From Escherichia coli (GTDB lineage: Bacteria > Pseudomonadota > Gammaproteobacteria > Enterobacterales > Enterobacteriaceae), in the NCBI RefSeq assembly GCF_003334305.1, contig NZ_QOWS01000090.1: a stretch of DNA of 200 nucleotides. One strand, written 5' to 3'. Position numbers and translations under genes: made by a program. The number at the start of each line of letters is the position of its first letter. Position 1 is the first letter of the stretch. Shown here in pieces: positions 1 through 200 of the stretch. Under the pieces are notes generated by a model, which was given only the letters and a program-made list of their open reading frames with translations, was not told the DNA's origin and did no database searches.

Positions 1-68
1 GTGTATTTCCCGTTAGCCAGGTCATACGCGGCCTTAACGGCTTTTGGCGTTGCCGCCTGTGACTCGGA
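1..68. repeat. Copy A of a perfect direct repeat (68 bp visible, cut by the window start); part of a 132-bp in-frame tandem unit
   Basis: Seen in sequence: base-by-base comparison shows + 1-68 is identical to + 133-200 (68/68). The offset is 132 bp = 44 codons, so the repeat preserves the minus-strand reading frame. Identity reaches the window edge, so the true extent is unknown. Confidence 0.95.
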
Positions 69-200
69 AGTGCTGTTAGTCGCACTGCTGAGCTGAACTA
101 TCCCTTTCTGTGCTGTCGTTGCATCCTGTGCGGTGTATTTCCCGTTAGCCAGGTCATACGCGGCCTTAACGGCTTTTGGCGTTGCCGCCTGTGACTCGGA
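1..200 (-). CDS. stf: Internal fragment (partial at both ends) of a phage side tail fibre protein gene, lambdoid Stf-like, made of tandem 44-aa tail-fibre repeat units
   Basis: Seen in sequence: minus-strand frame with codons at + 198-200, 195-197 ... 3-5 is open for all 66 codons. The other two minus-strand frames have stops (TAG = revcomp of + 98-100; TAA = revcomp of + 166-168). All three plus-strand frames have stops (TGA 94-96; TAG 14-16, 77-79, 146-148; TGA 60-62, 192-194). The translation contains GIVQLSSATNSTS (+ 66-104) and ATPKAVKAAYD (+ 21-53 and 153-185). Established knowledge, from memory: these resemble the conserved phage tail fibre repeat of lambda Stf and E. coli prophage Stf proteins (Pfam Phage_fiber_2, accession not verified here). 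Composition is rich in Ala/Thr/Ser/Gln/Lys, typical of a fibrous shaft. The symbol is given at family level only; the specific paralogue (for example stfR, stfE, stfQ or lambda stf) cannot be assigned from 200 bp. No in-frame ATG or stop is present, so gene boundaries are outside the window. Confidence 0.8.
133..200. repeat. Copy B of a perfect direct repeat (68 bp visible, cut by the window end); part of a 132-bp in-frame tandem unit
   Basis: Seen in sequence: identical to + 1-68. It encodes the same peptide, SESQAATPKAVKAAYDLANGKYT, as copy A on the minus strand. Identity reaches the window end, so the repeat may continue beyond position 200. Confidence 0.95.

Follow-up and report, generated by a model that had tools for sequence, protein, structure and literature searches.

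The 200 bases of Escherichia coli DNA analysed here (the window) are very probably an internal piece of stf, the side tail fibre gene of a lambda-like siphovirus prophage, which is read on the reverse strand. Six-frame translation leaves minus frame 1, running from window position 200 to 3, as the sole stop-free frame, and a coding frame on the plus strand at 3-200 is ruled out by two stops, so that the gene is on the minus strand. The initial annotation had rightly described a single open frame at 3-200 containing an exact 44-residue unit, leaving its strand unstated. The 66-codon translation reads SESQAATPKAVKAAYDLANGKYT followed by AQDATTAQKGIVQLSSATNSTSESQAATPKAVKAAYDLANGKY and amounts to 1.5 copies of this unit, and at the DNA level window bases 1-68 and 133-200 agree in 68 of 68 positions at an offset of 132, which is far beyond chance. 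Tandem Repeats Finder likewise assigns the full stf gene a period of 132 with 2.3 copies. The features of the window are collected in Table 1.

Table 1. Features of the 200-base window
Feature	Position	Strand	Basis
stf internal fragment, 66 codons	3..200	-	only open frame and 100% match inside the IAI1 CDS
Phage_fiber_2 unit, C-terminal 23 residues SESQAATPKAVKAAYDLANGKYT; unit 1 of the three-unit allele	132..200	-	PF03406 model 18-42, i-E = 9e-10
Next Phage_fiber_2 unit, first 43 of 44 residues AQDATTAQKGIVQLSSATNSTSESQAATPKAVKAAYDLANGKY	3..131	-	PF03406 model 1-39, i-E = 3e-21
Copy A of an exact 68-nt direct repeat, period 132 nt	1..68		offset-132 match
Copy B of the exact 68-nt direct repeat	133..200		offset-132 match

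A search of the window against Rfam for non-coding RNA gave a chance match only (E = 0.53), and no promoter-like or terminator-like sites were found on either of its strands. A 31-codon GTG-initiated reading frame runs antisense to stf on the plus strand at window positions 1-96 and is most likely spurious; the lambda record likewise annotates a hypothetical antisense reading frame (orf206b) within stf.

The repeat unit and its gene

Pfam recognizes the family PF03406 (Phage_fiber_2; InterPro IPR005068, 'phage tail fibre repeat') twice in the 66-residue translation, at residues 28-66 with a score of 75.2 bits and at residues 1-25 with 38.4 bits, and the family model of 42 positions is thereby covered at 1-39 and 18-42. 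PHROGs tail-fibre families match the same peptide with a best value of 2.4e-32. A protein search in a space of 5.8 billion proteins returned 151 matches, and PF03406 is present in all 120 of the matches listed; the source names, where one is given, are tail fibre, phage tail protein or hypothetical. The likeness to a tail-fibre repeat, which the initial annotation had pointed out, is thus confirmed, as is its expectation that a Pfam scan would find the phage tail fibre repeat family, and the protein and DNA similarity searches which it had proposed return tail-fibre genes. The window shows no difference from PF03406 and is an ordinary, typical member of this curated and already known family; the protein motif alone says 'tail fibre', and the repeat is not specific to lambdoid phages. 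Most protein relatives come from contigs of 220-330 bp and are 'partial', from which it follows that the repeat, being multi-copy, is a routine breakpoint of short-read assemblies. Some of these fragments, few in number, bear the labels Staphylococcus aureus, Pseudomonas aeruginosa, Acinetobacter or Xanthomonas, which look like contamination or mislabelling.

A DNA search found the 200 bases with 100% identity in numerous complete chromosomes of E. coli and with ≥99% identity in 257 records, and among the matches listed the window always falls under a 'prophage tail fiber' CDS. The window is matched in 1954 of 5426 genomes, at a median of 2 places per genome and at up to 8, and this presence in several copies accounts for short-read assemblies breaking here. 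Five places match in an 11-kb record that is labelled as a plasmid, and at one of them (CP088558.1:11014-11213) the match is 100% and stops a single base short of the record's end. The record probably represents a piece of prophage that was binned with plasmids.

In strain IAI1 the window corresponds to L001:20001-20200 and to residues 479-544 of a 986-residue protein (CDS 18567-21527) annotated as 'prophage tail fiber N-terminal domain-containing protein', and the window-bearing stf genes of the five loci examined encode 986-1030 residues. The IAI1 Stf begins with the 'prophage tail fibre N-terminal' domain PF08400 (residues 1-134, 1e-71), and its residues 1-94 match the lambda side-fibre N-terminal domain (PDB 9e7m, 1.4e-51). 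A low-complexity, Ala/Ser-rich rod of about 330 residues, three PF03406 units at 462-590 (about 1e-19 to 3e-20 each), a Collar domain at 761-808 and weak Phage_fiber repeats near the C-terminus make up the remainder. The repeat region matches the Mu tail fibre S (PDB 5yvq and 8ju3) at about 5e-8, and residues 744-986 match the needle tip of T4 gp37 (PDB 2xgf) at 2.8e-85. NCBIfam gave no match for the full Stf or for Tfa. The host gene accordingly has the classic lambda Stf architecture, consisting of a collar domain, an Ala/Ser rod, three to four units and a gp37-like tip, of which the last is a modular feature and not universal in Stf, since the two-unit allele of strain NRZ95651 has another tip.

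Prophage context of the identical loci

The genomic context was inferred from identical sequence in other genomes, and five such loci were inspected, with 20-kb flanks for IAI1, WAT, SA186 and 2014C-3655 and 3-kb flanks for AR_0081. The gene order gpJ-lom-stf-tfa is found in all five, and terminase, portal, protease, capsid, tape measure and G/T chaperone genes are present in each of the four loci with 20-kb flanks, none of which contains sheath genes. In IAI1 and WAT the prophage that contains the window is integrated at ydfJ, the Qin site, and has lambda-type head genes, with tfaQ and pinQ downstream. The IAI1 element spans about 46 kb from integrase to pinQ and includes lysis genes, an antiterminator, dicA/dicB/dicC, an exonuclease, an excisionase and the integrase. 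It is probably defective, since the minor tail protein gene gpL is frameshifted and the element contains an IS fragment and several other pseudogenes (L001:12257-12956, L011); in the WAT copy of the Qin-site prophage L is intact. In SA186 and 2014C-3655 the window lies in a different lambdoid prophage, which adjoins ssrA and in which prohead protease and capsid are fused. In this prophage tfa is directly followed by a LEM-3-like gene of the GIY-YIG type and by the genes of a DNA cytosine methyltransferase and of a type II restriction endonuclease (L004/L005:22181-26037), and the GIY-YIG and restriction-modification genes are likely defence or moron cargo. The downstream genes within the 3-kb flanks of AR_0081 match this ssrA-site prophage.

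One 2961-nt stf with the identical window is thus found in two lambdoid backbones (ydfJ, L001; ssrA, L004/L005), which differ in head modules, tfa genes, downstream cargo and integration sites, and this is a clear example of tail-fibre module exchange. In NRZ95651, 'gp53-like' and hypothetical genes lie in the opposite orientation downstream of stf and tfa, together with a frameshifted recombinase (L008:4747-5998). The segment looks like a decayed invertible tail-fibre segment of the Mu G / e14 P type, and the two-unit Stf of this strain has a non-gp37 C-terminus.

The notion that the locus belongs to an integrated prophage or tail gene cluster, as the initial annotation held, is in agreement with the head and tail genes seen in the four loci with wide flanks, where the flank inspection of about 20 kb that it had suggested also shows the order of head genes, tape measure, gpJ, lom, stf and tfa. 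Its assignment to lambdoid phages stands by virtue of 100% DNA identity to lambdoid stf, as against 83.5% identity to P2 H, whereas its use of the motif as a lambdoid hallmark does not, since P2 gpH and Mu S carry the repeat as well. It is precisely this shared repeat, present as two units in P2 gpH, that could suggest an origin in a fibre gene of a contractile-tailed phage or a phage-plasmid (of the P2 gpH, Mu S or P1 S type), and plasmids of roughly 100-130 kb furthermore carry 'tail fiber protein' genes with 89.5% matches. Such an origin is nevertheless highly improbable, since all 100%-identical matches examined are stf genes with the lambda-type PF08400 (StfN) N-terminus located downstream of gpJ and lom, in place of the baseplate-binding N-terminus and the baseplate or sheath neighbourhood of P2 gpH and Mu S. 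In phage and plasmid records, likewise, matches of at least 95% are without exception to a lambdoid stf or to an unannotated fragment, while myophage-type fibre genes reach about 94% at most, and the junction GKYT|AQDATTAQKG...SESQ in the window needs a lambdoid allele of at least three units.

The initial annotation had left undecided between a complete phage, a cryptic prophage and a phage-tail-like bacteriocin. The window alone is compatible with an origin in a tailocin cluster, and related tail-fibre modules occur in tailocins generally. A tailocin cluster would however be without head, packaging and replication genes, whereas terminase, portal, protease and major capsid genes lie upstream of the tail module in four of four loci with wide flanks, and IAI1 adds integrase, excisionase and lysis genes, which leaves this origin even less probable than that from a contractile-tailed phage. 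The question is thereby decided in part, in favour of a prophage, of which at least one, that of IAI1, carries inactivating mutations; the sampled contexts are lambdoid prophages, some of them probably defective, and not tailocins. That the window might instead derive from a non-phage repeat protein such as a bacterial surface adhesin is the least credible alternative and is effectively refuted. Ala/Ser/Thr-rich repeats do occur in adhesins, but the window matches a phage-specific Pfam family with E = 3e-21, is 100% identical at the DNA level to annotated prophage stf and has no non-phage names among its 120 listed protein matches.

Variation in unit number and the unit as a proposed joint

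With the window placed in lambdoid stf, the collinear alleles examined are found to hold between one and four units, and BLAST spans deviate from the query by exactly ±132 nt. Lambda Stf (residues 353-396) and the K-12-type StfR have one unit, phage mEp460 and strains CCUG 73778 and NRZ95651 have two, IAI1 and SA186 have three, and the 1030-residue Stf of AR_0081 has four. In the latter gene the 132-nt unit of the window occurs twice in perfect tandem (L007:3041-3304), so that the window sequence would map to two offsets there. The junction within the window was, among the alleles examined, found only in those with at least three units, and the window therefore requires an allele of at least that number.

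The middle unit of IAI1 (L001:20070-20201) is uneven in its relationships, since it resembles unit 3 over the 5' 30 nt (26/30) and shares about 99% identity with unit 1 over the 3' 96 nt. A single recent duplication fits this divergence only in part, and the chimeric appearance of the unit is consistent with unequal crossover between units. Near-identical 132-nt stretches of DNA would allow unequal crossover or slippage to add or remove whole units in frame. It could further be imagined that the units constitute a fast-mutating 'length dial', in which in-frame gain and loss alters how far the side fibre reaches or the geometry of its knee and tunes adsorption to the thickness of O-antigen or capsule, as opposed to being neutral recombination debris, but we regard this as rather unlikely.

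The position of the units within the fibre is suggestive of a role as a joint. The alleles part directly behind the last unit (...ETLAATPKAVK.A.D.A), continuing in distal domains that are unrelated to one another and even in other tips, and the unit therefore marks the boundary between a conserved proximal rod and an exchangeable receptor-binding part. In Ur-lambda, Stf comprises a collar domain (1-91), a linker, a proximal coiled coil (102-393), a hinge (394-422), a distal domain and finally a receptor-binding domain that binds OmpC, and four trimeric fibres make adsorption 10- to 30-fold faster (PMC12617516). The StfN domains form a dodecameric collar that anchors the four fibres at the tail tip, and the 'coiled coil' up to residue 393 stems from AlphaFold3 segments and not from resolved density (PMC12617516). 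In terms of these modelled segments the single lambda unit would end at the hinge, just before the knee. An engineered lambda-P2 chimera (PMC11338833), in which residues 1-393 of lambda Stf are fused to P2 H starting at residue 251, is furthermore a functional fibre, and by residue numbering this join falls on residue 41 of the 44-residue unit in both lambda Stf and P2 H. The published chimera supports the reading of the unit as a portable joint.

The side fibre would, in such a scheme, accelerate the reversible attachment to the cell surface that precedes receptor binding by gpJ, the gp37-like His-rich distal needle would bind the receptor and depend for its folding on the chaperone gene tfa next to it, and the Phage_fiber_2 units would be the conserved joint at which phages swap distal receptor-binding modules. 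Each unit may form a short stretch of trimeric fibre and so lengthen the fibre immediately ahead of the knee; it is in this sense that we infer how the unit folds, its trimeric state in window-type Stf and any effect that copy number has on adsorption. An AlphaFold2 monomer model of the three-unit region, made from a 61-sequence alignment, is of low confidence (pLDDT 57, pTM 0.19), and the only consistently helical parts of it are the TPKAVKAAYDLA segments. An older electron-microscopy study suggests that Pf2 regions look globular (PMC3368898). An experimentally determined structure of a Phage_fiber_2 unit was not found. A sequence search of the PDB matched the repeat in Mu S entries only, and in the Mu cryo-EM paper only the N-terminus of gp49 is said to be modelled, the repeat lying at about residues 108-150.

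The window marks its locus as accessory, mobile prophage DNA and has little significance beyond annotation. The location of the unit at the junction between the constant and the variable part of the fibre is relevant to engineering of phage host range, and such use has already been published. Copy-number variation and this junction position are tidy but unsurprising. The gene stf is a well-known one of a well-known class of prophages.

Relation to known tail fibres

The closest known systems are lambda Stf (UniProt P03764) and its E. coli prophage paralogues StfR and StfQ, which share with the window-bearing Stf the PF08400 domain, the Ala/Ser rod, the Phage_fiber_2 unit, the gp37-like tip and the gene order J-lom-stf-tfa. 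The 94 N-terminal residues are almost identical to lambda StfN (9e7m). Lambda and the K-12-type StfR differ from the window-bearing allele in having one unit where the latter has three or four, and the hinge and distal region of lambda are unrelated to the stretch that links the last unit to the tip in the window-bearing Stf.

P2 gpH contains the 44-residue unit twice, at residues 166-253, with 83.5% nucleotide identity to the window, and the sequence directly downstream of its unit (the hinge) is shared with lambda Stf, while Mu S (gp49) has a single 44-residue unit. Both are however fibres of contractile tails, which have a different baseplate-binding N-terminal domain and are without the long Ala/Ser rod, and their DNA is not identical to the window. 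Work by Haggård-Ljungquist and colleagues and by Hendrix and Duda, both of 1992, reportedly described fibre segments as being shared horizontally among P2, lambda, Mu and T4; such exchange has long been established, and PMC3368898 and PMC12617516 cite these two lines of work. As regards T4, the last 243 residues of the host Stf can be aligned with the needle domain of gp37 (PDB 2xgf), including its His-x-His motifs, and this likeness is located about 200 residues downstream of the window, which itself is without a gp37 counterpart. A further relationship exists to EPclB, one of the collagen-like prophage fibres of EHEC (Ghosh et al. 2012, PMC3368898). This protein has collagen triple helices and a PfC C-terminus, whereas the window-bearing stf is without collagen repeats, but it likewise combines PF08400 (PfN) with Phage_fiber_2 (Pf2), and in these collagen-like fibres the length of the rod varies by whole repeats.
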